Shown here piece by piece: positions 4,983 through 60,390 of a stretch of 64,000 nt of DNA (position 1 is the first letter of the stretch; every line of letters begins with the position of its first letter). A program made the position numbers and the translations under genes. Source of the DNA: Escherichia phage vB_Eco_NicPhage. The stretch is taken from the sequence record OY726582; one strand, given 5' to 3'. Under the pieces are notes generated by a model. The model was not told the DNA's origin, did no database searches, and worked only from the letters and a program-made list of their open reading frames with translations.

Positions 4983-6965
4983 ATGTCACTTCTCTCTCCG
5001 GGCGTTGAGCTCAAAGAAACTACCGTACAGAGTACTGTAGTTAATAACTCCACTGGTACTGCTGCCCTGGCTGGAAAATTCCAATGGGGACCTGCATTCC
5101 AGATTAAACAAATCACTGATGAAGTTGCATTAGTTGATATGTTTGGTACTCCTAATACGGATACAGCAGATTATTTCATGTCTGCTATGAACTTCCTTCA
5201 ATATGGTAATGACCTTCGTGTTGTACGCGCAGTTGACCGTGATACTGCTAAGAACTCATCTCCTGTAGCGGGCAATATTGAATTCACAATCTCTGCTGCT
5301 GGTAGTAACTATGCAGTTGGTGATAAAATTATCGTTAAGTATTTGACCGAAACTGTTGAAGCAGATGGTTATGTCACTTCAGTTGATGTCGATGGTAAAA
5401 TTCTTAACATTTATATCCCAACCGGTAAAATTATTGCTCGTGCAAAAGAAATTAATGAATATCCGGCATTGGGTTCTAACTGGACCGCCGAAGTTGCCAG
5501 TTCTTCTTCTGGACTCTCTGGCGTTATTACAATTGGTTCTATCGTAACCGATTCGGGTATTCTGTTAACTGAAGTTGAAACTTCTGAAGAAGCTATTACT
5601 TCTCTAACTTTCCAAGAATCTATTAAAAAATATGGTGTCCCAGGCGTAGTTGCTCTTTATCCTGGTGAACTTGGCGACCAGCTCGAAATTGAAATCGTAT
5701 CTAAAGCAGACTACGACAAAGGTGCTTCAGCCCAGTTAAAAATTTATCCTGATGGTGGTACTCGTGCATCTACTGCTAAAGCAATCTTTGGGTATGGCCC
5801 ACAAACTGATGACCAATATGCAATTATCGTTCGTCGTAACGATGCTGTAGTTCAGAGCGTAGTTCTTTCTACTAAACGTGGTGAACGCGATATTTATGGT
5901 AGTAATATCTTTATTGATGATTTCTTTGCTAAAGGCGCAAGCAATTATATTTTCGCTACTGCACAAGGTTGGCCAAAAGGTTTCTCTGGCGTAATCAAAC
6001 TGGGCGGTGGTTTATCATCTAATGAAACGGTTGACGCTGGTGATTTAATGGAAGCTTGGGATTTGTTTGCTGACCGCGAATCTGTTAATGCGCAGTTGTT
6101 TATTGCCGGTTCTTGTGCAGGTGAATCTTTAGAAGTTGCTTCTACAGTTCAGAAACATGTTGTAGCAATTGGTGATTCTCGCCAAGATTGCTTGGTTCTT
6201 TGCTCACCGCCACGTGCAACTATAGTCGGTATTCCTGTTAATCGTGCAGTTGATAATCTGGTTGATTGGCGTACTGCATCAGGATCTTACACTGATAATA
6301 ACTTTAATGTAAGTTCTACTTATGCTGCTATTGACGGTAACTATAAATATCAATACGACAAATATAACGATGTGAATCGTTGGGTTCCGTTAGCTGCTGA
6401 TATTGCCGGTCTTTGTGCTCGCACAGACAATATTTCTCAGCCTTGGATGTCTCCGGCCGGTTATAACCGTGGACAAATTCTTAACGTTATTAAGCTTGCA
6501 ATTGAAACTCGTCAACCACAACGTGATCGTTTGTATCAGGAAGCTATTAACCCTGTTACTGGTACCGGTGGTGATGGATATGTTCTGTATGGTGATAAAA
6601 CTGCCACTTCCGTTCCTTCACCATTTGACCGTATTAACGTTCGTCGTTTGTTCAATATGGTTAAAACGAACATTGGTTCAGCATCTAAATATCGCCTGTT
6701 TGAATTGAACAACGCATTTACCCGTTCTTCTTTCCGTACAGAGACTTCTCAATATCTACAGGGTATTAAAGCTCTCGGTGGTGTATATAACTTTAAAGTT
6801 GTTTGTGATACTACCAATAACACCCCAGCAGTTATCGACCGTAATGAATTTGTAGCTACTTTCTACTTACAACCTGCCCGCTCGATAAATTATATTACGT
6901 TGAACTTTGTAGCAACAGCAACTGGTGCCGATTTCGACGAACTAATTGGTGCTGTAGGTGGCTAA
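4983..6965 (+). CDS. 18: tail sheath protein gp18
   Basis: 660-aa ORF, T4 gp18 length and synteny. Confidence 0.95.
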   Translation: MSLLSPGVELKETTVQSTVVNNSTGTAALAGKFQWGPAFQIKQITDEVALVDMFGTPNTDTADYFMSAMNFLQYGNDLRVVRAVDRDTAKNSSPVAGNIEFTISAAGSNYAVGDKIIVKYLTETVEADGYVTSVDVDGKILNIYIPTGKIIARAKEINEYPALGSNWTAEVASSSSGLSGVITIGSIVTDSGILLTEVETSEEAITSLTFQESIKKYGVPGVVALYPGELGDQLEIEIVSKADYDKGASAQLKIYPDGGTRASTAKAIFGYGPQTDDQYAIIVRRNDAVVQSVVLSTKRGERDIYGSNIFIDDFFAKGASNYIFATAQGWPKGFSGVIKLGGGLSSNETVDAGDLMEAWDLFADRESVNAQLFIAGSCAGESLEVASTVQKHVVAIGDSRQDCLVLCSPPRATIVGIPVNRAVDNLVDWRTASGSYTDNNFNVSSTYAAIDGNYKYQYDKYNDVNRWVPLAADIAGLCARTDNISQPWMSPAGYNRGQILNVIKLAIETRQPQRDRLYQEAINPVTGTGGDGYVLYGDKTATSVPSPFDRINVRRLFNMVKTNIGSASKYRLFELNNAFTRSSFRTETSQYLQGIKALGGVYNFKVVCDTTNNTPAVIDRNEFVATFYLQPARSINYITLNFVATATGADFDELIGAVGG

Positions 6966-6976
6966 TAAGACGCCTG

Positions 6977-6998
6977 ATGGGCTATTTCGGTAGCCCAT
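6977..6998 (+). other. stem-loop after gene 18 (8-bp stem ATGGGCTA/TAGCCCAT, loop TTTCGG)
   Basis: Perfect inverted repeat read directly; no downstream T-run, so probably an RNA stability or processing element rather than a strong terminator. Confidence 0.4.
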
Positions 6999-7005
6999 AT
7001 AAATA
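6998..7005 (+). promoter_or_regulatory. late promoter TATAAATA upstream of gene 19
   Basis: Exact T4 late-promoter core about 70 nt upstream of the gene 19 ATG. Confidence 0.6.
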
Positions 7006-11387: not shown

Positions 11388-12956
11388 ATGACTACTATCA
11401 AAACTAAAGCTCAGCTCGTAGACAAATGGAAAGAACTGCTGGAAGGTGAAGGCCTGCCGGAAATCGCTAATAGCAAGCAGGCTATTATCGCTAAAATCTT
11501 CGAAAACCAGGAAAAAGATTTCGAAGTATCCCCTGAATATAAAGACGAGAAAATCGCTCAGGCATTTGGTTCTTTCTTGACCGAAGCTGAAATTGGTGGT
11601 GACCATGGTTATAATGCTCAGAACATCGCAGCAGGTCAAACCTCTGGTGCAGTAACCCAAATTGGGCCGGCAGTTATGGGTATGGTTCGTCGTGCTATTC
11701 CTAATCTAATCGCTTTTGATATTTGTGGTGTTCAGCCTATGAACAGCCCGACCGGTCAGGTATTTGCTCTCCGTGCAGTATATGGTAAAGACCCTATCGC
11801 TGCTGGCGCTAAAGAAGCTTTCCATCCGATGTATGCCCCAGACGCGATGTTCTCTGGTCAGGGTGCTGCTAAGAAATTCCCAGCTCTGGCTGCTGACACT
11901 ACTACTGTTGTAGGTGATATCTATACTCACTTCTTCCAAGAAACTGGTACTGTATATCTGCAAGCTTCTGCTGTCGTAACACTTGATTCTGGTGCAACTG
12001 ATGCAGCTAAATTAGATGCAGAAGTTAAGAAACAAATGGAAGCTGGTGCACTGGTAGAAATCGCTGAAGGTATGGCTACTTCTATCGCTGAACTCCAGGA
12101 AGGTTTCAACGGTTCTACCGATAACCCATGGAATGAAATGGGCTTCCGTATCGATAAACAAGTTATCGAAGCTAAATCTCGCCAGCTGAAAGCTGCTTAC
12201 TCTATCGAATTAGCACAAGACCTCCGTGCAGTACACGGTATGGATGCTGATGCTGAACTGAGCGGTATTCTGGCTACAGAAATTATGCTAGAAATCAACC
12301 GTGAAGTTGTTGATTGGATTAACTACTCAGCACAGGTTGGTAAATCTGGTATGACCCTGACTCCGGGTTCTAAAGCTGGTGTATTTGACTTCCAGGACCC
12401 GATTGATATCCGTGGTGCTCGTTGGGCCGGTGAAAGCTTTAAATCTCTGTTGTTCCAGATTGATAAAGAAGCAGTTGAAATTGCTCGTCAAACCGGTCGT
12501 GGTGAAGGTAACTTCATTATCGCTTCCCGTAACGTAGTTAACGTACTGGCTTCAGTTGATACTGGTATTTCTTACGCTGCACAGGGCCTGGCTTCTGGTT
12601 TTAATACCGACACTACTAAGTCTGTATTTGCCGGTGTACTTGGTGGTAAATACCGCGTATACATCGACCAGTATGCTAAACAGGATTACTTCACCGTTGG
12701 TTACAAAGGCGCTAACGAAATGGATGCAGGTATTTACTATGCTCCTTACGTTGCACTTACCCCGCTGCGTGGTTCCGATCCTAAGAACTTCCAGCCGGTA
12801 ATGGGCTTTAAAACTCGTTACGGTATCGGTGTTAACCCGTTTGCTGAAAGTTCCCTGCAGGCTCCAGGTGCTCGCATCCAGTCCGGTATGCCATCTATCC
12901 TGAACAGCCTTGGTAAGAACGCTTACTTCCGCCGTGTATATGTAAAAGGCATCTAA
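11388..12956 (+). CDS. 23: major capsid protein gp23
   Basis: 522-aa ORF highly similar to remembered T4 gp23 (for example LLEGEGLPEIANSKQAIIAKIFENQEKDF). Confidence 0.97.
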   Translation: MTTIKTKAQLVDKWKELLEGEGLPEIANSKQAIIAKIFENQEKDFEVSPEYKDEKIAQAFGSFLTEAEIGGDHGYNAQNIAAGQTSGAVTQIGPAVMGMVRRAIPNLIAFDICGVQPMNSPTGQVFALRAVYGKDPIAAGAKEAFHPMYAPDAMFSGQGAAKKFPALAADTTTVVGDIYTHFFQETGTVYLQASAVVTLDSGATDAAKLDAEVKKQMEAGALVEIAEGMATSIAELQEGFNGSTDNPWNEMGFRIDKQVIEAKSRQLKAAYSIELAQDLRAVHGMDADAELSGILATEIMLEINREVVDWINYSAQVGKSGMTLTPGSKAGVFDFQDPIDIRGARWAGESFKSLLFQIDKEAVEIARQTGRGEGNFIIASRNVVNVLASVDTGISYAAQGLASGFNTDTTKSVFAGVLGGKYRVYIDQYAKQDYFTVGYKGANEMDAGIYYAPYVALTPLRGSDPKNFQPVMGFKTRYGIGVNPFAESSLQAPGARIQSGMPSILNSLGKNAYFRRVYVKGI

Positions 12957-12980
12957 TCTTAATTGATTAAATCTTATTTT

Positions 12981-13004
12981 GGGAGACTTCGGTCTCCCAT
13001 TTTT
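12981..13004 (+). terminator. intrinsic terminator after gene 23 (GGGAGAC-UUCG-GUCUCCC plus U-run)
   Basis: 7-bp GC-rich stem with UUCG tetraloop followed by ATTTTT. Confidence 0.75.
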
Positions 13005-13008
13005 GGTT

Positions 13009-13278
13009 TTATTTCTGTGCAATTTCGATGTAAGTTTTCAAAATATTTTGCCAATTAGGCATACCTTCTTGGACATATGCCGGAGAACCATCTTTGTTTT
13101 TGAATGATGCAAGTTTATCAGTGGCCCAATAACCTTTAGCTCGAGCTTCAGAATCAACTTTCATCCATACTTTGTTGAAGGCATTACCATTAACTTTTGC
13201 ACCATATTTTTCTACTAACTTAACTGCTTCAGCTTCCAGAACTTTTAAAGTATCTCGTAAGAAACGTGCTTTAGTCAT
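13009..13278 (-). CDS. hypothetical protein, orphan early gene between capsid genes 23 and 24
   Basis: 89-aa ORF with GAGGAG ribosome-binding site and its own sigma70-like promoter upstream; no recognisable domain. Confidence 0.55.
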   Translation of the reverse strand: MTKARFLRDTLKVLEAEAVKLVEKYGAKVNGNAFNKVWMKVDSEARAKGYWATDKLASFKNKDGSPAYVQEGMPNWQNILKTYIEIAQK

Positions 13279-13308
13279 TTTGTTTACTCCTCTGTAGTTG
13301 ATAAGTCT

Positions 13309-13338
13309 ATAGTATCACATACTAAATACGTTGTAAAC
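13309..13338 (-). promoter_or_regulatory. early sigma70-like promoter (-35 GTTTAC, 18-nt spacer, -10 TACTAT)
   Basis: Minus-strand GTTTAC...TGATACTATAGAC about 25 nt upstream of the 13278 ATG. Confidence 0.55.
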
Positions 13339-16324: not shown

Positions 16325-16353
16325 TAAAAACGAAGAAAGGGGCCGAAGCCCCT
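16325..16353 (-). terminator. intrinsic terminator after hoc (GGGGC-UUCG-GCCCC plus U-run on minus strand)
   Basis: Hairpin at 16338-16353 followed on the minus strand by a T-rich run. Confidence 0.6.
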
Positions 16354-16358
16354 TACGA

Positions 16359-17489
16359 TTATGGATACGTATAGATGATACCAGTTTCCAAAGCAGTTTT
16401 ATGGATGATGTATCCATTACGTGATTCTTGAACATCAACTTCCGGATAGTCTTTCATCATCTTCTGAAGAGTGTAACGATGCAGGTAGTATTTACTATCT
16501 GGATCTTCAGTTTTCCAATCTTTACCTTCTTCAGTCATTTTTTGGATTTCATCCATAACCCACCAACCGCACCAGATGTAAGCTGAAGTACGATGTGGAA
16601 GAGGATGAACATAAGGTAGTTCACCTTCTGGTTCTGGAGCAACTTTATCAGTTACCTGAACTTGACCTTCTGCTGTAATAGTTTTGCTATCGTAATCAGT
16701 TGCAGTAATAGTTGCAGTAACTTCAATAGTTTGACTTCCAATAGACGAGGTATCAACGGTATATACATTAGTTGACCCTTCTACAGGAGAAGAATCTTTC
16801 TTCCATGAATACGCAATTTGCGCTTCTTCTGGAGCATCCGTAACATTAGCCGTAAATGTAGCCGAAGCATCTTGTTGAACATTAATAGAAGGAGGAGTCA
16901 ATGTAACCTGTGGATTCATTGTCTTCTTATTAACCGTTAATGATACTTCATTCGAAGTAACTTCCTTTGCATCATAATCTGTCGCAGTTACTTGGGCTAC
17001 ACATTTAATTCTTTTTACTCCACTTGTAGTTGGAGTATAGCTAAATGTAGAGTTAGTTTCTCCACCAACCTGTGAATCATCTACATACCACTGATACGTA
17101 GCAGACGCTCCAGCTGGTTGAGAAGCTAAGGCAGCAGTAAATTGAACTGGGGTTCCAATTACTCCAGCTGAAGGACTATTGGGAGTTACAGCTAAGGTAG
17201 TCGTTTGTGTCTTGTTTTGAACTGTGATGGTTGTAGAAGCTTCTGCTGTTTCAGCTTCAGCTTCTGGAACTGTATTTGTTGCAACTACTTTAATAGTCTT
17301 TTGACCGGCAGGTCCTTTTAGTACATAACTAAAAGTTGCTTCAGCTCCATCTTGCGGAACATCATCTACAGACCAAGCATATGTAATAGTTCCACCTCCA
17401 GTTTCACCACTGGGAGTAGCAGTAAACTGCTTAGTCTCATCTATAACTCCAGTAGGTGTTTTAGGAGTTATATCAACTGTAAAAGCCAT
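16359..17489 (-). CDS. hoc: Hoc outer capsid decoration protein (Ig-like domains)
   Basis: 376-aa ORF closely matching remembered T4 Hoc (FTVDITPKTPTGVIDETKQFTATPSG..., C-terminal capsid-binding region). Confidence 0.92.
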   Translation of the reverse strand: MAFTVDITPKTPTGVIDETKQFTATPSGETGGGTITYAWSVDDVPQDGAEATFSYVLKGPAGQKTIKVVATNTVPEAEAETAEASTTITVQNKTQTTTLAVTPNSPSAGVIGTPVQFTAALASQPAGASATYQWYVDDSQVGGETNSTFSYTPTTSGVKRIKCVAQVTATDYDAKEVTSNEVSLTVNKKTMNPQVTLTPPSINVQQDASATFTANVTDAPEEAQIAYSWKKDSSPVEGSTNVYTVDTSSIGSQTIEVTATITATDYDSKTITAEGQVQVTDKVAPEPEGELPYVHPLPHRTSAYIWCGWWVMDEIQKMTEEGKDWKTEDPDSKYYLHRYTLQKMMKDYPEVDVQESRNGYIIHKTALETGIIYTYP

Positions 17490-18953: not shown

Positions 18954-20468
18954 ATGACAGATATTAAAGTACATTTTCACGATTTTAGCCATGTAAGAAT
19001 TGAATGCGACGAAAGCGTGTTCTATGAATTACGCGACTTTTTTAGCTTTGAAGCCGATGGGTACAAATTCAACCCGCGTTACAAATATGGGAACTGGGAT
19101 GGTAGAATTCGACTTTTAGATTACAACCGTTTGTTACCATATGGACTTGTAGGACAAATAAAAAAGTTCTGTAGCAATATGAGTTATTCTGTATGGGTTG
19201 ACCCTAAAATCTTTGAGACCGAAGACCTTACCAGAGAAGATTTTGACGCATGGCTTTCTAAACAAGAAATTTATTCGGGCAACGCCAAAATCGAACCACA
19301 TTGGTATCAAAAAGATGCAGTATATGAAGGACTAGTTAATCGTCGTCGAATTTTAAACCTTCCGACATCAGCAGGTAAATCACTAATCCAAGCACTTTTA
19401 GCTCGATATTATCTAGAGAACTATGAAGGTAAAATTCTCATTATCGTCCCTACAACAGCATTGACAACCCAGATGGCTAATGATTTTGTTGATTATCGCT
19501 TGTTTAGTCATTCGATGATTAAGAAAATTGGCGGTGGTGCTGATAAAGCAGACAAATCTAAAAACGACGCTCCAATTATTGTTGGCACATGGCAAACAGT
19601 AGTTAAGCAGCCTAAAGAATGGTTCTCTCAGTTCGGTATGATGATGAACGATGAATGCCACTTAGCAACAGGCAAAAGTATTTCTTCAATCATCGCAGGA
19701 TTAAATAATTGTATGTTTAAATTCGGTTTATCTGGCTCATTAAGAGACGGAAAGGCCAATGTAATGCAGTACGTAGGTATGTTCGGCGAAATCTTCCGTC
19801 CTGTTAGCACGTCTAAATTAATGGAAGATGGACAGGTAACTGAGCTTAAGATTAATAGTATTTTCCTTCGTTATCCAGACGAATTCGCCACCAAATTAAA
19901 AGGTAAAACATACCAAGAAGAAGTTAAAATTATTACCGGACTAAAACGACGTACAAAGTGGATTGCTCAACTTTCAGTCAAATTGGCTAAGAAAGACGAG
20001 AACGCTTTTGTAATGTTTAAACACGTTACACACGGTAAAGAAATATTTGAAGCTATTAAAGAGCTTGGATACGAAAAAGTTTATTACGTATCAGGTGAAG
20101 TTGATACTGAAACACGTAACGCGCTTAAAGTCATGGCAGAAAATGGTAAAGGCATTATTATTGTCGCATCATATGGAGTATTCTCTACTGGTATTTCAGT
20201 CAAGAATCTTCATCATGTTATTTTTGCCCATGGTGTTAAATCAAAAATTATCGTACTTCAAACCGTAGGTCGCGTGCTTCGTAAGCATGGTTCTAAATCT
20301 GTTGCTACAGTTTGGGATCTCATCGACGATGCAGGTGTAAAACCTAAATCATTAAATACTAAAAAGAAGTATACTCATCTTAATTACTTGTTAAAACACG
20401 GTATTGATCGTATCCAACGTTACGCTGATGAGAAATTTAACTATGTAATGAAAACAATTAATTTATAA
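18954..20468 (+). CDS. uvsW: UvsW helicase (SF2, recombination/repair)
   Basis: 504-aa ORF with helicase motifs (PTSAGKS Walker A, DECH box), T4 UvsW length. Confidence 0.9.
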   Translation: MTDIKVHFHDFSHVRIECDESVFYELRDFFSFEADGYKFNPRYKYGNWDGRIRLLDYNRLLPYGLVGQIKKFCSNMSYSVWVDPKIFETEDLTREDFDAWLSKQEIYSGNAKIEPHWYQKDAVYEGLVNRRRILNLPTSAGKSLIQALLARYYLENYEGKILIIVPTTALTTQMANDFVDYRLFSHSMIKKIGGGADKADKSKNDAPIIVGTWQTVVKQPKEWFSQFGMMMNDECHLATGKSISSIIAGLNNCMFKFGLSGSLRDGKANVMQYVGMFGEIFRPVSTSKLMEDGQVTELKINSIFLRYPDEFATKLKGKTYQEEVKIITGLKRRTKWIAQLSVKLAKKDENAFVMFKHVTHGKEIFEAIKELGYEKVYYVSGEVDTETRNALKVMAENGKGIIIVASYGVFSTGISVKNLHHVIFAHGVKSKIIVLQTVGRVLRKHGSKSVATVWDLIDDAGVKPKSLNTKKKYTHLNYLLKHGIDRIQRYADEKFNYVMKTINL

Positions 20469-20482
20469 GGGCTTCGGCCCTT
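20467..20482 (+). other. stem-loop AAGGGC-UUCG-GCCCUU between uvsW and uvsW.1
   Basis: Perfect hairpin with no U-run, directly followed by the AGGAG ribosome-binding site of uvsW.1. Confidence 0.45.
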
Positions 20483-20493
20483 AGGAGATAAAA

Positions 20494-29378: not shown

Positions 29379-29408
29379 ATAGTATCACACATCCGTGTGT
29401 TTGTAAAC
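29379..29408 (-). promoter_or_regulatory. early sigma70-like promoter (-35 GTTTAC, 18 nt, -10 TACTAT)
   Basis: Minus-strand GTTTACaaacacacggatgtgtgaTACTAT, 30 nt upstream of the 29349 ATG. Confidence 0.55.
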
Positions 29409-31495
29409 TATCCTTGGACAAATTTAAACGGAACTGATTCTAAATCCATTAAAGATGCTAACAATTTCAAACCTTTAGGTGCACTAGTTTTTTCTACAAA
29501 TGAGGCAAAAGATACCGGCTCATCTGATTCGATTTCACCCGTCATAGCAACTACCTCGCCTGTTTCCATGAGAACATCACCATCGTAAATGACAGCTTCG
29601 TCCAACTGGTCCGAGGACATGACTTCAGCTTGAATAAATTTAAGGTTGGATTCTAAACCTGCACCAGTGTCAGATGACGCATCTGTAATTTTATTTATCT
29701 GCAAGAGAATGCCTCTAGGCAAAATAATTTCTTGCTCATTAGGGTGATTACTCAACTGTCCGGGATAAATCACGTTAACTTTATGAGCGCCATCAATAGC
29801 CCATCCAACATTAACACGAATTTGTTCTGGCGCATGCATAGCGGTACGTGCCAGGCTAGGAGAAATAGTAACACCTTCGTCATTATTGTCAATGTTAAGC
29901 TCTTTGCGAACTTCTTCAGGAGCAAGTCCAAGGGCAACGTTCTCTTTAAACCCACCAAAAATAATAGGAGCTAATGAAGTAGAAACATAGTTTCTGAAGT
30001 AGAATACCTTATTTTTAACCATTGCTTCGTAAATAGGCATTCTGATAGACTGGGCTCTATACAACGTTAGTCCTTCAGGTAAACGGTCTCCATTTAAAAA
30101 CGCCGAATCAAGACCATCAATAGCGCGTTTAACTTCATCTTCATCTGCAACATCATAAAAATCCGGTTTATAACGGCCTAACAACATATTATTGATATCG
30201 GTATACGCAGAAGAGGCATATTCGCGAATAGCTCGTTTTTCAGCAACAGAGTATTGTTTAGGGTCCCGATTCATTGTTATATTAAAGGTGCCTCTAGCCG
30301 ATTCTCGTGCATAAGTATACATCACATTAGACAAGAACGCTGATTTACGTTGTTTCCAAGTTTTTTCAGATACTTCAGCTAAAACATCGTCGGCCAGTTG
30401 GAAATTATCACGTCTAAAATCTTCAAACCATTCGTCTTTAATAGAGTCCGCAATTTCGTTTGCAGCTTCAACAAAAGCAGCTAATGCTTTAACAGATGTT
30501 GTTTTTTCAGTTTTAATTTTCTTAGCAAACTTTTCTAAAGTTGGCTTAATAACACTACCATAAGAAACTTCATCAGCAAATCTAAAGGATTCATCAATAC
30601 GATTATAAATCTTATTTTCGATATCAGCAACTAAAGTGCCTTTTGCTGTGGATGATGCTTGGGCTAGTACGATTTCATATGCTTCAGGAAGTAATTCGGC
30701 TGTAGCCGGGCCACTAACTTCTTTAGCAGAATTTTCGTATTTCTGGAATAACTCACCTTCTTGGCGGTCAGCTTCTAAAGATTGGCTTGCGGCAATAGCA
30801 CGACGAGAAATTTTAGTACGAGCAATAACAGGCTTATCTTTACGTTTTTCTTCTACAGCAGCAATAGAACCAGCGATAGCCGTTTCTTTGGTGACTTTTT
30901 CGCCGGTCTTTTTACTCACATAAACTTCGCCAACATCAGAATCTACTTTCGTGTACAACTCTGTGTTAATGTTAGGGATGCCTTTAATATCTTCAATGTT
31001 GGCATTTTTACGAACCATCATCACATAGGTGTGTTTACCTGTGAATTGATACATTGCCGACAATACTTTAAAACGACCACCGGTTTTAGTAGAAACTAAA
31101 CGAGCAAGAAGAGTTTGAAGCTGTTGTCCACGTCCTTTCAATTTCTTGGTAGGGAATCGGAACAGAACTGCATCCATACGAAGAGCTTTAACCTGTTCAT
31201 ATACCGTATTGAAAATGGTGTTGATTGCATCAATAGGAGCAGGACCAAGGCCATTTTTCAATTCAGCGAGATTACCCTTTTCAGACAGACTCATAATAAC
31301 AACATGAGCGTATTTGTCGCCAAGTTTAACTTGTTTTACAGCATCGCCTTCAGAAAGGTAAGAGAATAAGCGAACTACGATGTTTGTATCGATATCACCA
31401 ATTTTCCAGACTTGTGGAACTTTAGCTTTAGGGTTCAAATTGACGACAGGAAGACTGCCTTCAGATTCAAACACTTCATTTAATTGTTCAGACAT
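29408..31495 (-). CDS. alt: Alt ADP-ribosyltransferase (head-packaged, modifies host RNA polymerase)
   Basis: 695-aa ORF; size and position (between gene 54 and ligase gene 30) as T4 alt. Confidence 0.8.
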   Translation of the reverse strand: MSEQLNEVFESEGSLPVVNLNPKAKVPQVWKIGDIDTNIVVRLFSYLSEGDAVKQVKLGDKYAHVVIMSLSEKGNLAELKNGLGPAPIDAINTIFNTVYEQVKALRMDAVLFRFPTKKLKGRGQQLQTLLARLVSTKTGGRFKVLSAMYQFTGKHTYVMMVRKNANIEDIKGIPNINTELYTKVDSDVGEVYVSKKTGEKVTKETAIAGSIAAVEEKRKDKPVIARTKISRRAIAASQSLEADRQEGELFQKYENSAKEVSGPATAELLPEAYEIVLAQASSTAKGTLVADIENKIYNRIDESFRFADEVSYGSVIKPTLEKFAKKIKTEKTTSVKALAAFVEAANEIADSIKDEWFEDFRRDNFQLADDVLAEVSEKTWKQRKSAFLSNVMYTYARESARGTFNITMNRDPKQYSVAEKRAIREYASSAYTDINNMLLGRYKPDFYDVADEDEVKRAIDGLDSAFLNGDRLPEGLTLYRAQSIRMPIYEAMVKNKVFYFRNYVSTSLAPIIFGGFKENVALGLAPEEVRKELNIDNNDEGVTISPSLARTAMHAPEQIRVNVGWAIDGAHKVNVIYPGQLSNHPNEQEIILPRGILLQINKITDASSDTGAGLESNLKFIQAEVMSSDQLDEAVIYDGDVLMETGEVVAMTGEIESDEPVSFASFVEKTSAPKGLKLLASLMDLESVPFKFVQG

Positions 31496-35854: not shown

Positions 35855-35889
35855 AATTTCCTCAGTGGGAGCCGAAGCTCCCAATTAAT

Positions 35890-36740: not shown

Positions 36741-36769
36741 ATAGTAACACATCCTACAGGAGAGTAAAC
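36741..36769 (-). promoter_or_regulatory. early sigma70-like promoter (-35 GTTTAC, 17 nt, -10 TACTAT)
   Basis: Minus-strand GTTTACtctcctgtaggatgtgtTACTATagac, about 40 nt upstream of the 36698 ATG. Confidence 0.55.
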
Positions 36770-36796
36770 ATCTTTTTTAAACTTTTTCTGCCCTAA

Positions 36797-36824
36797 ACGC
36801 ACAAAAGGGAGACCGAAGTCTCCC
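36797..36824 (-). terminator. intrinsic terminator GGGAGAC-UUCG-GUCUCCC plus U-run (minus strand)
   Basis: Same 18-nt hairpin as at 12981, in minus orientation, followed by CTTTTGTGCGTTT. Confidence 0.7.
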
Positions 36825-36829
36825 TAAAA

Positions 36830-37009
36830 TTATGCAACAACCTTTCCAAAACGAGAAGCATCATCTCGAAGAACTGCACGTGCTCTGCGCATGATCTTCT
36901 CAACTGTTTGATTAATACGAGAGTTCGACCCACGCTTGTATCCAGCGCGTTTAGAGGTACCATCAACTTTCTTTTCAACTGCTTTCTTTGCTTTAGCTTG
37001 TTTTGCCAT
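36830..37009 (-). CDS. small lysine/arginine-rich protein, 59 aa (possible nucleic-acid binding)
   Basis: Own translation: MAKQAKAKKAVEKKVDGTSKRAGYKRGSNSRINQTVEKIMRRARAVLRDDASRFGKVVA; below the 60-aa cutoff of the ORF track; followed by the terminator. Confidence 0.4.
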   Translation of the reverse strand: MAKQAKAKKAVEKKVDGTSKRAGYKRGSNSRINQTVEKIMRRARAVLRDDASRFGKVVA

Positions 37010-45487: not shown

Positions 45488-45501
45488 TGGGACCGAAGTC
45501 C
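45488..45501 (-). other. hairpin GGGAC-UUCG-GUCCC between nrdB and denA
   Basis: Perfect 5-bp stem with tetraloop; weak U-run. Confidence 0.4.
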
Positions 45502-45506
45502 CGTCC

Positions 45507-46685
45507 TTAGAAATATTTTTTGTATGAATTGATTACATTTTGGTCTACATCATTATCAATTTGTGCGACAAGATAAGAACTGATTTCAACTTCCTGAGGA
45601 GCTGCTTGAACTAAATCAGAGTTCAGATATTCACGAATCCAAGGATACGGATGCTTGGTCGGAGCATCCGTAATTGGACATGGCAAACCACACTGTTTCA
45701 TACGAGACACAGTCAAGTAATCAACAAAAGCACACATACTCTGCGTATTGATACCTGGACATGTACCATCTTTAAAGAGGTGTGCAGCCCATTCCTTCTC
45801 TTGACTATTTACTTCCATAAAAATGTCAACTGCTTCTTGTTCACATTCTTTAGCAATTTGAACCCACTCATCACCGTCAGTACCAGATTGAAGTTGACGG
45901 ATAATGTACTGAGTACCCTTGAGATGGAGTTGTTCGTCACGAGCAATGAACTTCATAATCTTTGCATTGCCTTCCATAATTTCCATATTTTTATGGAAGT
46001 TAAAGGTACATGCAAATGATACGTAAAAACGAATAGCTTCCAAGGCGTTAATTACATGAAGGCAAAGATAAAGAGATTTCATTAGCTCACGCTTCCAATA
46101 TGTCTCATGCTCAATAGCATCTTCAATAACGTCTTCGTCTGCATTAATTTCTTTTTGGTATTCGATATCGGCTTTAGCGTTTTCCCAATAACGAGTTTTA
46201 ACCAGAACATCATCGTAATATTTACCTATTGATTCAGCTCGTTTCATGATTGCTTCGTCTAATACAATCTCATCAAATACTTTGGATGGATCGGTATAAA
46301 GATTTCGCATAATATGAGTGTACGAACGAGAGTGAATAGTTTCACTGAATGTCCATGTTGCAACCCACGTATCTAATGAAGGGTCGGAAATCAGTGCCAT
46401 AAGTACCGCAGATGGGGCCCTGCCTTGGATAGAATCTAATAATGATTGATACTTAAGATTGTTTGTAAAGATGTCCTGTTGGAACTGAGGAAGCTTATTG
46501 AACTGCGCAGAGTCCAACATCAAGTTTACCTCTTCTGGGCGCCAGAAAAATGACAATTGCTTTTCAATAAGTTCTTCAAAAACTTTATGTCGCTGAATAT
46601 CATAACGTGCGAGGCCAAGACCAGAACCAAAGAACATTGGTTCATTCAAAACATCGACTTGTTGTGTGTTAAAAACTGTACTCAT
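45507..46685 (-). CDS. nrdB: ribonucleotide reductase small subunit NrdB (aerobic class Ia), uninterrupted
   Basis: 392-aa continuous ORF (T4 NrdB is 388 aa). Confidence 0.93.
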   Translation of the reverse strand: MSTVFNTQQVDVLNEPMFFGSGLGLARYDIQRHKVFEELIEKQLSFFWRPEEVNLMLDSAQFNKLPQFQQDIFTNNLKYQSLLDSIQGRAPSAVLMALISDPSLDTWVATWTFSETIHSRSYTHIMRNLYTDPSKVFDEIVLDEAIMKRAESIGKYYDDVLVKTRYWENAKADIEYQKEINADEDVIEDAIEHETYWKRELMKSLYLCLHVINALEAIRFYVSFACTFNFHKNMEIMEGNAKIMKFIARDEQLHLKGTQYIIRQLQSGTDGDEWVQIAKECEQEAVDIFMEVNSQEKEWAAHLFKDGTCPGINTQSMCAFVDYLTVSRMKQCGLPCPITDAPTKHPYPWIREYLNSDLVQAAPQEVEISSYLVAQIDNDVDQNVINSYKKYF

Positions 46686-49546: not shown

Positions 49547-50407
49547 TTATACCGCCATTTTAGCTTTGATAGTTGGATGAGATTCGTAATTTTTAAGAAC
49601 GAAATCAGAATGTGTCATCGTTCCAGTAACCCAGTCCATTTGGATTTTTGTAGGCCAATTCTCAAAATTACTAGGCCAATTAATTTCAAGAGAACATAAC
49701 TCTTTAGGTTCACGACGAAGAACTTCTTTGCATTGTTCTACATGATTGCTGTAGATATGCGTGTTGCCGCCTGAGAACACTAAATCACCTGGGATAAGGT
49801 TACACATCTTCGCTACAATATGCGTCAAGGCAGCGTACGAGGCAATGTTGAACGGCAGGCCCAAGAAAACATCTACACTGCGTTGATACCATTGTAAATC
49901 AAGATGCCCATTACGCACATTAAATTGATAGAACATATGACAAGGAGGAAGAGCCATTTGGTCAATTTCGGCTGGGTTCCATGCAGAAACTATTTGACGA
50001 CGATCATTAGGAAGAGCTTTAATACGGTCGATAGTTTTGACCAATTGGTCTACACCACCAAAATCACGCCATTGCTTACCATAAATAGGACCAAGTTCGC
50101 CGCTATGATATCCAAGGTCTTTTGCCTGATTTTCATAGTTGTCGTCCCAAATAGTTTTACCTTGAATAAGACTACCATGAGTACGAATACGCAAATCATT
50201 AACATTGGTAGAACCAGACATGAACCACAGTAACTCGGCAATACAAGCTTTCCATGCTAATTTCTTAGTTGTTACCGCAGGGAATCCTTTAGTCAGATCC
50301 CAACGTAATTTAGTTCCGAACAGGGCAATAGTGCCGGTACCTGTACGGTCGTCTGTTTCGTAGCCATTTTCTAGGATATCATTAATCAGGTATTGGTATT
50401 GTTTCAT
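49547..50407 (-). CDS. td: thymidylate synthase, uninterrupted
   Basis: 286-aa continuous ORF (T4 Td is 286 aa after intron splicing); thymidylate synthase-like sequence (PPCH, active-site region). Confidence 0.95.
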   Translation of the reverse strand: MKQYQYLINDILENGYETDDRTGTGTIALFGTKLRWDLTKGFPAVTTKKLAWKACIAELLWFMSGSTNVNDLRIRTHGSLIQGKTIWDDNYENQAKDLGYHSGELGPIYGKQWRDFGGVDQLVKTIDRIKALPNDRRQIVSAWNPAEIDQMALPPCHMFYQFNVRNGHLDLQWYQRSVDVFLGLPFNIASYAALTHIVAKMCNLIPGDLVFSGGNTHIYSNHVEQCKEVLRREPKELCSLEINWPSNFENWPTKIQMDWVTGTMTHSDFVLKNYESHPTIKAKMAV

Positions 50408-51968: not shown

Positions 51969-51997
51969 ATACTAACACATCCAGGGAAGAAGTAAAC
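51969..51997 (-). promoter_or_regulatory. early sigma70-like promoter (-35 GTTTAC, 17 nt, -10 TAGTAT)
   Basis: Minus-strand GTTTACttcttccctggatgtgtTAGTATagac, about 30 nt upstream of the 51939 ATG. Confidence 0.55.
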
Positions 51998-52020
51998 AAC
52001 TTTTTCGGCAATTTACAGAT

Positions 52021-52046
52021 ACTCAAAAGGGAGACCGAAGTCTCCC
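52021..52046 (-). terminator. intrinsic terminator after gene 32 (GGGAGAC-UUCG-GUCUCCC plus U-run)
   Basis: Same 18-nt hairpin as at 12981 and 36807, followed on the minus strand by TTTTGAG. Confidence 0.7.
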
Positions 52047-52052
52047 AATTTA

Positions 52053-52955
52053 TTATAGACCGGCTAACAGGTCATCGAGGTCACCATCATCAGAGGACGA
52101 GGTAGAACTCATGAAGTCATCTTCAGTTTTTGCAGAACTAAAGGCTTCCATGTCTTTATCGAAATCGTCAAGGTCAGAAGCAACTTTATCTGCAACAGAA
52201 GCTGCTGCGGCTGCTGCACCACCAAGAGCGGCAGTACCAAGAACCTTAGCGAAAGATTCATTTAATTTTTCAAAGGATTTGAACTGGTCTTTAGCCGTCA
52301 AAGTAGTAAGGTCTACCATCTGGTCATATAGTTCTTTCTGGAATGCTTCATCATTAATACGAGGAATTTCAGATTGACCCAAGAATTTAGATTCGTCATA
52401 GTTGCTAAAACCGGAAACCTGCTTAGCTTTCAGAACGAAGTTGGCACCTTCAAACGGACAAGTAACATCAACTGGAGTTTCACCCATTTCGGTATCAACA
52501 GCAATCATTGCATTGATTTTGTCCCAAATCTTTTTACCGAAACGATATTTAAATACTTTACCTTCGTTATCTGGAGCTTGAGGGTCTTTAACAACCAGAA
52601 TATTAGCCCAATAAGAAGTTTTACGTTTCAGTTGAGAATATTCATTTTTGTTGGTATTGTACAGGTCATTTTTACTAATGTACTGACATACAGGACAAGA
52701 GTCATAATCACCATGTGTAGAAGAGCAATTTTCAATATACCATTTACCATTTTTCTTGAAACCGTGGTTAACAAGAATTGCAAATGGTAGTGCATCATCA
52801 GTTTTTGCTGGCAAGAAACGAATTACCGCTTGACCATTACCGGATGCATCTAGCTTCAGCTTCCATTCGCCTTTATCTTCTGAAGAGAAACCTTTGTTAC
52901 CATTCAGTTTAGCCATTTGAGCAGCGAGGTCAGCAGTAGATTTACGTTTAAACAT
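52053..52955 (-). CDS. 32: single-stranded DNA-binding protein gp32
   Basis: 300-aa ORF closely matching remembered T4 gp32 ([23 protein letters not shown], acidic C-terminal tail). Confidence 0.95.
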
Positions 52956-59224: not shown

Positions 59225-60352
59225 ATGGAAAAATTTATGGCTAAGTTTGGACAAGGATACGTCCAAACGCCATTTTTATCGGAAAGCAATTCAGTACGAT
59301 TTAAATTAAGCATAGCGGGCTCTTGTCCGCTATCAACATCTCCTGCTTATATTAAGTTCCAGGATAATCCACTCGGGTCCCAGGTTTTTTCCGTTGGATT
59401 AAACGTTCGTATAATAAATCCTACAACAGGTGCAGTAGTTGAATCTAAGTCATATAATTTCTCTACTGAAAACGACGCCACGTCAAGTGCATTTGTTACT
59501 TTCATGGACACATACGCTTCAAATTTTATATTTGCTCTTGTTACTAACGCTAAAACAAACTTTCCTCCTGAAGTTCTTGCATGGTTTACCAAAGCTGGGA
59601 GTTCTGTTATTCCATTAGCTCAACAAGTTTTAAATATAGTGGACATTTCTTATTCGGCATTTTATATTTCTGGTAAGAATGCTATAGCACTAGAACATAT
59701 TAAGTATAGTAATAAGAAAACTTCAACCGACTATAGTACACCACTTGATGTTGTGTACGACACGATCGATGATATTGGTGCTACCGGCTTCCCTAGTCGT
59801 ACGTACGAATCGACAGACACATTTTTATCTGCTGTTGGAGGTACTAATAATGAAATTAAAAGGATGCCTACAACATCCATTATTACACCTCTCGCTGGGT
59901 ATAAATTGAAGCCTGGAGATTTCCTTTATATGAAATTCCAACTAATGGCCAATGCTGATTTGTTAGCACAAGGGACGACACGACTTTCTATTCGTTTCTT
60001 TAAATCTCCTTCTACTTCACCTATTTCATTTAAGGATATAAACTTTGATGGGGCTGCAGGTGAATGGAAGATATATGAAGACTACATAGAAATTCCTGCT
60101 GGTGCTGACGGGTTCACGATTTATTGTTATCGTACAGCTCCAGTCGGGCAAGGTGGATTAAGAAACGTTATATTCACTGAAGTATCATGTAATGGAAGCG
60201 TTTCAAAACCTGCTGAGTTTGGTATAAATGGTATTCGTGTAAATTATGTTTCAGAATCTTTAAGTGCTCCAGACATAATGACATTACCTACTCAATCTTC
60301 AACTGATACTGGTAAGGTATTTGGACAAGAATTTAAAGAAGCATCAGAATAA
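59225..60352 (+). CDS. 35: long tail fibre hinge connector gp35
   Basis: 375-aa ORF, synteny. Confidence 0.85.
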   Translation: MEKFMAKFGQGYVQTPFLSESNSVRFKLSIAGSCPLSTSPAYIKFQDNPLGSQVFSVGLNVRIINPTTGAVVESKSYNFSTENDATSSAFVTFMDTYASNFIFALVTNAKTNFPPEVLAWFTKAGSSVIPLAQQVLNIVDISYSAFYISGKNAIALEHIKYSNKKTSTDYSTPLDVVYDTIDDIGATGFPSRTYESTDTFLSAVGGTNNEIKRMPTTSIITPLAGYKLKPGDFLYMKFQLMANADLLAQGTTRLSIRFFKSPSTSPISFKDINFDGAAGEWKIYEDYIEIPAGADGFTIYCYRTAPVGQGGLRNVIFTEVSCNGSVSKPAEFGINGIRVNYVSESLSAPDIMTLPTQSSTDTGKVFGQEFKEASE

Positions 60353-60357
60353 ATTTA

Positions 60358-60381
60358 GGGAGACTTCGGTCTCCCATTTTT
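60358..60381 (+). terminator. intrinsic terminator after gene 35 (GGGAGAC-UUCG-GUCUCCC plus U-run)
   Basis: Identical hairpin to 12981-12998, followed by ATTTTTG. Confidence 0.75.
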
Positions 60382-60382
60382 G

Positions 60383-60390
60383 TATAAATA
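60383..60390 (+). promoter_or_regulatory. late promoter TATAAATA upstream of gene 36
   Basis: TATAAATA 25 nt upstream of the gene 36 ATG, directly after the terminator. Confidence 0.6.

Follow-up and report, generated by a model that had tools for sequence, protein, structure and literature searches.

There are four exact copies of the 18-mer GGGAGAC-TTCG-GTCTCCC (GGGAGACTTCGGTCTCCC) in the window, by which we mean the whole stretch of 64,000 nucleotides from Escherichia phage vB_Eco_NicPhage (sequence record OY726582) that was analysed. They are located at 12981-12998 (+), 36807-36824 (-), 52029-52046 (-) and 60358-60375 (+), and their characteristics indicate that they very probably function by intrinsic termination combined with protection of the mRNA 3' end, both of which would be conferred by a C(UUCG)G hairpin and the U-tract that follows it. 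The four hairpins are of the long-known T4 "CUUCGG" terminator type, and are already known both in kind and at these loci. Their identity to one another most likely has mixed causes, comprising an old shared allele after genes 23 and 32 and at the gene 35/36 junction, the recombinational replacement of a hairpin with its spacer at 36807, and a narrow, asymmetric design space.

Sequence, position and fold of the four copies

A sequence search agrees with the preliminary description of this DNA, which had listed these four exact copies, and no further site appears in the window even when up to three mismatches are tolerated. There are no matches in 100 dinucleotide-preserving shuffles of the window, and the four copies are also present in the records of the phages moha, G2469 and mar005P1. 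Chance or a sequencing or assembly artefact is thereby refuted, and we assign it practically no probability. GenBank record MK327934, which represents the near-identical phage G2469, gives each of the four as a 'putative transcriptional terminator' (-16.1 to -17.3). The copies and the features beside them are as follows.

Copy 1, 12980..13010 (+): U-GGGAGAC-UUCG-GUCUCCC-A, then the U-tract AUUUUUGGUUUU; MK327934 terminator 109207-109226
Gene 23, 11388-12956 (+): major capsid protein; copy 1 starts 24 nt past the stop
89-aa ORF, 13009-13278 (-): convergent with gene 23, on the other side of copy 1
Copy 2, 36795..36825 (-): A-GGGAGAC-UUCG-GUCUCCC-U, then UUUGUGCGUUU; MK327934 terminator 132297-132314
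59-aa ORF, 36830-37009 (-): phrog_1427, in the position of T4 gene 30.9, upstream of copy 2
Early (sigma-70-type) promoter, 36741..36769 (-): GTTTAC-N17-TACTAT, 37 nt downstream of copy 2, with an A-rich tract before it
Copy 3, 52017..52046 (-): the 18-mer, then UUUUGAGUAUCU; MK327934 terminator 149387-149404
Gene 32, 52053-52955 (-): single-strand DNA-binding protein; copy 3 lies 9 nt from the first base of the stop codon
Early promoter, 51969..51997 (-): GTTTAC-N17-TAGTAT, 31 nt downstream of copy 3
Copy 4, 60358..60382 (+): the 18-mer, then AUUUUUG; MK327934 terminator 157706-157723
Gene 35, 59225-60352 (+): long tail fibre connector; copy 4 is directly 3'
Late promoter, 60383..60390 (+): TATAAATA, adjoining the U-tract of copy 4, with the start of gene 36 (60415) 25 nt downstream

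The stem is self-complementary, and the strand of the 18-mer can be distinguished by its loop only. TTCG appears on the coding strand of the directly upstream gene in all four cases. The copies had been described as lying after gene 23, gene 35, gene 32 and minus-strand genes, and this placement is borne out by stop codons located 7-24 nt upstream of every copy, with copy 2 starting 7 nt from where the 59-aa ORF stop codon begins. The 3' flanks, in the order of the copies, are ATTTTTGG, TTTTGTGC, TTTTGAGT and ATTTTTGT. The number of T residues in the 8 nt that follow the 18-mer is 5, 5, 5 and 6, of which 4-5 are consecutive, in agreement with the U-run that had been noted after each copy.

RNA folding, which had been proposed as a check, yields a hairpin with a UUCG loop in all four copies. 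The predicted stem has 7-8 bp and includes five G-C pairs. The minimum free energies of the 50-nt contexts range from -13.6 to -19.2 kcal/mol (z -1.9 to -4.8 versus shuffles), and the hairpin by itself accounts for -12 to -13.6 kcal/mol. For copy 1, the sense form with its UUCG loop (-16.1 kcal/mol) is 2.6 kcal/mol more stable than the antisense form with its CGAA loop (-13.5 kcal/mol). The four copies, as well as five shorter variants discussed below, carry CTTCGG at the apex and are thereby members of the C(UUCG)G class. The four copies also exhibit the anatomy of intrinsic terminators, wherein the transcribed strand carries a G/C-rich stem with a 4-nt loop and a 3' U-rich tract where a transcription unit ends. 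A new promoter follows three of the four copies, which is early after copies 2 and 3 and late after copy 4. The late-promoter motif TATAAATA is the T4 late-promoter consensus. A scan of the whole window with Rfam 15 gave no family at or above its gathering score.

The T-even early-promoter consensus is TTTACW-N17-TAYWAT (PMC4122927). There are ten early-promoter-like sites in the window, located at 13337, 16183, 29407, 36324, 36768, 40353, 42480, 43885, 45069 and 51997, and all are on the minus strand, which fits the orientation of early genes. Nine of them match TTTACW-N16-18-TAYWAT and the tenth (51997) has TAGTAT instead, and many of the ten carry an extended GTG(A/T)TACTATAGAC -10 region.

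Escherichia phages vB_Eco_mar005P1 and moha, which are T-even phages of the genus Mosigvirus (RB69 group), match the window at 99.9% identity, and at least 150 Mosigvirus records have 95% identity or more. The complete moha genome (168,676 bp) was pieced together from four segments, and it carries the 18-mer at the same four loci only. There are 23 C(UUCG)G hairpins with a stem of at least 5 bp in the moha genome, and these represent a small purine-rich repertoire with several other coincidences of 14-17 nt. The loop reads UUCG in the mRNA sense in 22 of the 23 (binomial P about 3e-6), and in all nine of the hairpins in the window. The earlier statement that every transcript carries UUCG is therefore accurate for the window and very nearly so for the whole genome. 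This bias in loop orientation suggests a function in RNA rather than in DNA. A main role at the DNA level, such as a cruciform or a protein site, is unlikely given that the loop tracks the transcribed strand so consistently.

The sole hairpin of this class in moha whose loop is antisense is found after gene 8, outside the window (MN850590, 21527-21544). Its mRNA reads GGGAGCC-CGAA-GGCUCCC followed by AUUUUUG, and it too corresponds to a terminator in MK327934 (-18.9).

Relationship to previously described terminators

T4 terminators consist of a GC-rich stem, a 4-nt loop and poly(U) (PMC2988022), and CUUCGG hairpins are abundant in the intergenic regions of T4 (Tuerk et al. 1988, as cited in PMC8948821). 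The copies described here resemble those hairpins in the C-G-closed UUCG loop, the short G/C-rich stem, the intergenic location, the sense orientation and the abundance. Nothing essential is different, except that T4-type phages bear other stems at the same sites. Nolan et al. 2006 studied T4 alongside RB69 and four other T4-like genomes and predicted, for RB69 and its relatives, conserved terminators 3' of genes 23 and 32 and between genes 35 and 36 (PMC1524935). The genus Mosigvirus is thus covered by that study and by MK327934, in which all four copies are putative terminators. The sections of Nolan et al. 2006 and of MK327934-type records that concern these sites give positions and do not mention the fourfold sequence identity. 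A literature search for Term-seq or 3'-end data on this phage or on T4-type phages found none.

Generic intrinsic terminators of the E. coli type likewise have a GC-rich stem, a 4-nt loop and a 3' U-tract. Compared with strong E. coli terminators, the U-tracts of the four copies are shorter and UUCG loops are unusually frequent. Bacterial intrinsic terminators are biased towards a G-rich 5' arm and a C-rich 3' arm, and the 18-mer exhibits the same asymmetry.

These classical T4 CUUCGG terminators have been found again at predicted and annotated sites, and they carry little weight as a discovery. The mildly interesting point is the reuse of one stem sequence at several unrelated loci.

Shorter variants of the hairpin

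The five shorter variants of the same design that had been noticed in the window do exist, but the coordinates given for them were 1-3 nt off. Their positions are as follows.

16337-16354 (-): AAGGGGC-UUCG-GCCCCUU, then UCUUCGUUUUU; after hoc (16359-17489); terminator-like; a terminator in MK327934
31535-31552 (-): AAGAGCC-UUCG-GGCUCUU, then UUUGG; upstream of alt (29408-31495); terminator-like
20466-20483 (+): UAAGGGC-UUCG-GCCCUUA; overlaps the uvsW stop codon; without a U-run
35866-35883 (-): UGGGAGC-UUCG-GCUCCCA; without a U-run; then GAGGAAAUUAUG (Shine-Dalgarno sequence and start codon)
45489-45502 (-): GGGAC-UUCG-GUCCC; after nrdB (45507-46685); without a U-run; 'terminator, -12.40' in MK327934

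A conserved terminator upstream of alt is among those listed by Nolan et al. 2006 (PMC1524935). Three of the five variants (20466, 35866 and 45489) lack a U-run and two of these (20466 and 35866) are directly followed by a Shine-Dalgarno sequence, and they are accordingly not canonical terminators. The sequence directly 3' of the hairpin at 20466-20483 is GGAGAUAAAAAUG, which comprises a ribosome-binding site (Shine-Dalgarno GGAG) and the start of uvsW.1. A role of this hairpin in mRNA stability or in translation, possibly in translational coupling, is more likely than one in termination. The existence of three UUCG hairpins without a U-run indicates that the hairpin design alone does not imply termination.

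Proposed mechanism of the four copies

In the mechanism that we propose, host RNA polymerase would pass the stop codon of gene 23, the 30.9-like gene, gene 32 or gene 35, whereupon the nascent RNA would form a G/C-rich stem of 7-8 bp, capped by the extra-stable UUCG tetraloop and its closing C-G pair. The stem and the next 4-5 U residues would destabilise the elongation complex and the transcript would be released, after which the terminator hairpin would shield the 3' end of the mRNA. The U-tracts contain only 4-5 consecutive U residues, and termination may therefore be partial. A promoter follows the hairpin at 36807 and 52029 (an early promoter 31-37 nt on) and at 60358 (a late promoter directly), which suggests that these three copies might serve as insulators between adjacent transcription units. 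The preliminary description had already read the copies as terminators, and several features argue for this reading, namely the anatomy, the sense orientation, the conservation of a hairpin and U-run at orthologous sites (see below), the GenBank annotation and the predictions of Nolan et al. 2006.

One alternative is that the hairpins are mainly mRNA 3'-end stabilisers, RNase barriers or processing signals, and not sites at which polymerase terminates. The UUCG hairpins at 20466, 35866 and 45489, which have no U-run and are located between co-transcribed genes, would be accommodated by this explanation, as would the short U-tracts of the four copies, and roles of CUUCGG hairpins in mRNA stability are documented (summarised in PMC8948821). 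However, a U-run is present directly 3' of the stem in all four copies, a further promoter lies after three of them as would be expected at the end of a transcription unit, and the orthologous sites of the T4 family are predicted terminators (PMC1524935). We therefore regard a mainly stabilising function as improbable, and note that the terminating and stabilising roles are not mutually exclusive. If the hairpins indeed act as terminators, the terminator/early-promoter and terminator/late-promoter junctions have the practical use of marking the boundaries of transcription units in the window.

Orthologous sites in related phages

Loci of relatives were taken from IMG/VR, and the most stable hairpin within about 100 nt 3' of the stop codon was chosen for each. 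A G/C-rich hairpin followed by a T-run is present in almost every phage both after gene 32 (about 45 loci, from 100% to 38% protein identity) and after gene 23 (about 55 loci, from 95% to 32% protein identity). A hairpin with a U-run is also found after the 59-aa ORF in essentially all sampled relatives. The stems at these three sites vary among relatives by paired changes. UUCG is the commonest loop after genes 23 and 32, where CUAGA, GCAAU, GAAA and other loops occur as well. For example, in T4-type phages such as vB_EcoM_G8 the sequence is AAGGGACC-UUCG 3' of gene 23 and GGGGACC-CUAGA 3' of gene 32, and T4-type phages have GAGGACUCC-UUCG at the 30.9 site.

Many genomes whose gp23 is 81-85% identical, among them JS98-type phages, CHI14 and EcS1, have the exact (AU)GGGAGAC-UUCG sequence 3' of gene 23, and genomes whose gp32 is 64-66% identical have the exact GGGAGAC-UUCG stem 3' of gene 32. 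The gene 35/36 site was compared on the basis of 18-mer matches, since gp35 is too divergent in IMG/VR (two loci). At this junction, two other lineages carry the same hairpin with the same ATTTTTGTATAAATAT flank. The occurrence of one stem at these three sites in several Tevenvirinae genera indicates, from sequence comparison, that three of the four copies represent an old allele that is widespread within the subfamily.

The situation is different for copy 2. Nearly all lineages (60-96% identity, including T4-type phages) carry GGGACUCC-UUCG-GGAGUCCC after the 59-aa ORF, and among the sampled relatives GGGAGAC is present there only in the lineage of the window and in phage EcS1. The 59-aa ORF has about 95% nucleotide identity with T4-type phages, but the alignment breaks at the last three codons, and everything from this break to the promoter -35 box, including the spacer and the hairpin, differs from the T4-type sequence. 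Thus, the segment at 36807 with the ancestral GGGACUCC stem and the downstream spacer has been replaced, and there is no run of compensatory point mutations. A search for recombination breakpoints at the copies had been proposed, and copy 2 sits at one.

EcS1 (LC371242) has at least four copies of the 18-mer, located after gene 23, in the gene 52 region, after gene 32 and at the 30.9 site. A stretch of 34 nt, ATGGGAGACTTCGGTCTCCCATTTTTGTATCTGT, is identical between its gene 32 copy and its 59-aa ORF copy, which looks like genuine copying.

Occurrence beyond T-even phages

The 18-mer is present in at least 120 IMG/VR contigs and in at least 120 bacterial contigs from many phyla. Among the IMG/VR matches listed, 42 of 120 loci have no tblastx similarity to a T-even genome, and 112 of 122 occurrences have at least five T residues in the next 9 nt in the UUCG orientation. 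A 30-nt query of an annotated phage collection identified 465 records with 1573 places, wherein several Tevenvirinae genera have 3-7 places per genome and unrelated phages have single copies, some of them annotated as terminators. A search for the 18-mer in the whole genome and in related phages, as had been suggested, therefore reveals the same four loci in moha and wide recurrence elsewhere.

Two control sequences are informative about the design. When the arms are swapped to give GTCTCCC-TTCG-GGGAGAC, which preserves the same pairs and the same C(UUCG)G cap, only five viral contigs are found. The permuted purine-rich stem GGAGGAC-TTCG-GTCCTCC is found in 108 viral contigs, which is about as frequent as the 18-mer itself. 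The 18-mer is consequently neither a unique optimum nor a phage-specific element, and it is a member of a favoured design class in which the 5' arm is rich in G and A, the 3' arm is rich in C and U, and the cap is C(UUCG)G. The suggestion that selection favours one optimal hairpin is compatible with the wide recurrence, conflicts with the abundance of the permuted stem, and is not established. The compact 25-nt element can be viewed as a widely reused natural terminator design with a strong asymmetry of its arms.

Two copies of the exact 18-mer are also located within about 0.7-3.6 kb of each other in Gallionellaceae, Sideroxydans and Nitrosomonadales metagenome-assembled genomes (six loci). 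These pairs in iron-oxidising betaproteobacteria indicate that reuse of a hairpin within a genome is not limited to phages.

Possible origins of the fourfold identity

When the 160-nt contexts of the four copies are aligned, identity is confined to the hairpin and U-run. Copies 2 and 3 also resemble each other about 30-60 nt downstream, and this likeness corresponds to the early-promoter consensus GTTTAC-N17-TA(C/G)TATAGAC, which is present at 13305 and 55263 as well. A larger mobile repeat around the copies is excluded, given that nothing else is common to them. Under a position-independent model based on the other 19 hairpins, which is a crude null, about 0.09 GGGAGAC stems would be expected among 23, and the probability of observing at least four is about 2e-6. 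A narrow design space alone therefore does not explain the fourfold identity.

Matching of stems within genomes was examined at the gene 23, gene 32 and 59-aa ORF sites of 25 genomes with distinct profiles, with permutation of the genomes within each site. The numbers of identical hairpin pairs are as follows.

All 25 genomes: observed 8, expected 2.25, P = 0.0004
Window excluded: observed 5, expected 1.4, P = 0.005

The permutation test ignores phylogenetic relatedness and there are few independent events, so these values are only suggestive of a homogenisation of terminators within genomes.

T4-type phages are known to carry PeSLs, which are cassettes that combine a terminator stem-loop with an early promoter (Arbiol 2010, PMC2839356; Comeau 2014, PMC4122927). 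The order of elements in a PeSL is stem-loop, A-rich tract, sigma-70-like early promoter, Shine-Dalgarno sequence and ATG, and the stem is often formed by a G-run and a C-run. PeSLs terminate transcription in reporter assays, recur in T4-like genomes, recombine with one another, and are found at the junctions of indels and replacements (PMC2839356, PMC4122927). In addition, some PeSL crossovers lie inside the stem-loop, and recombination in T4 needs less than 50 bp of homology (Arbiol et al. 2010, PMC2839356). The 'modular terminator cassette' of the preliminary description is essentially this published PeSL hypothesis. In architecture it agrees with copies 2 and 3, whose elements are arranged as in a PeSL, and copy 2 also shares the association with a breakpoint. 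In contrast, the promoter part is absent at copies 1 and 4, which close late structural operons, and copy 4 leads into a late promoter. Moreover, the whole cassette is a near-identical repeat in RB49 and phi1, where it is dense in hyperplastic regions, whereas only the 18-25 nt of the hairpin and U-run are identical here, and the defining repetition of a whole cassette is thus not observed.

One possibility is that the copies are nevertheless parts of PeSL-type mobile cassettes, wherein the conserved sequence serves as a DNA-level recombination linker and the identity arises by homologous or short-patch copying between loci and phages. We entertain this tentatively. The layout of copies 2 and 3 is as required, copy 2 is located exactly at a breakpoint where most lineages have GGGACUCC-UUCG, the two EcS1 copies have their 34 nucleotides in common, stems match within genomes more often than in the permutations (with and without the window), crossovers within the stem-loop of PeSLs are documented, and less than 50 bp of homology is enough in T4 (Arbiol 2010, PMC2839356). 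Against this, copies 1 and 4 are located after late genes and lack an early promoter, no homology unites the four copies outside the hairpin and U-run, and the downstream likeness of copies 2 and 3 is a general promoter consensus. Furthermore, a stem-loop is located within 40 nt of only two of the ten early promoters in the window, a tract of 18-25 bp is very short for homologous recombination, and the permutation test is blind to kinship among few independent events. The claim that a cassette was spread by recombination therefore gains from the breakpoint at 36807, from EcS1 and from the layout of copies 2 and 3, loses from the lack of any common sequence beyond the hairpin and U-run (other than the promoter consensus at copies 2 and 3), and is not established.

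Alternatively, without any copying, each site might have separately reached GGGAGAC-UUCG-GUCUCCC as the optimal or near-optimal design of a short terminator for an AT-rich genome. Such pure convergence would be consistent with the recurrence of the 18-mer in viral contigs that have no T-even similarity and in bacteria of many phyla, with the strong asymmetry of the arms that is evident from the rarity of the arm-swapped control, and with the small purine-rich repertoire from which the 23 UUCG hairpins and their other coincidences are drawn. However, a permuted stem of the same composition is similarly common, which argues against any single optimum, and four identical stems among 23 are scarcely expected under the weight-matrix model described above. 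In addition, the conversion of GGGACUCC into GGGAGAC requires several paired changes and a paired deletion, the spacer changed simultaneously, and different stems work at the same sites in T4-type phages. On balance, we consider convergence by itself to be rather unlikely. The combination of an old allele, a replacement at 36807 and a constrained design space is the explanation that we consider most likely.

Perhaps terminator hairpins at non-homologous loci of T-even phages evolve in concert, with a 'house' stem in each lineage that is copied between sites by short-patch recombination or gene conversion. This mechanism of copying, which we infer from the hairpin sequences, is put forward as a speculative possibility. 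House stems may include GGGAGAC in Mosigvirus, EcS1 and CHI14-type phages, GGAGCC in the 2974573174/2706796299 group and GGGAACC-CUAGU in 2974496990-type phages. If this is true, the hairpins would be both regulatory signals and sites of micro-homology for genome shuffling, and the PeSL idea would be extended to late-gene terminators and to units of 18-34 nt. Confirmation of homogenisation within genomes would be a small addition, of modest interest, to the understanding of how T4-like genomes shuffle modules.

Additional observations

G2469 differs from the window at two genes. The nrdB gene of G2469 is split by an inserted ORF (MK327934, 141444-143234), and is intact in the window (45507-46685, 392 aa). 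Similarly, the td gene of G2469 contains an intron with an endonuclease ORF (MK327934, 145888-147764), and is intact in the window (49547-50407, 286 aa). These differences show that mobile introns or homing endonucleases are variably present within the species.

A 9-bp hairpin, AUGGGCUAU-UUCG-GUAGCCCAU, is located at 6977-6998 (+), after the tail sheath gene (4983-6965). Its loop is closed by a U.G pair and it lacks a U-run. The last base of this hairpin is the first base of a late-promoter motif TATAAATA (6998-7005), which makes this a further hairpin/late-promoter junction, similar to that of copy 4.

The sequence GGAG is present in the 5' arm of the 18-mer and in about nine of the 23 UUCG hairpins of the moha genome. 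The phage endoribonuclease RegB cleaves at GGAG, and the annotation of moha includes regB-like genes. Within these UUCG hairpins, the GGAG sequence would be base-paired.
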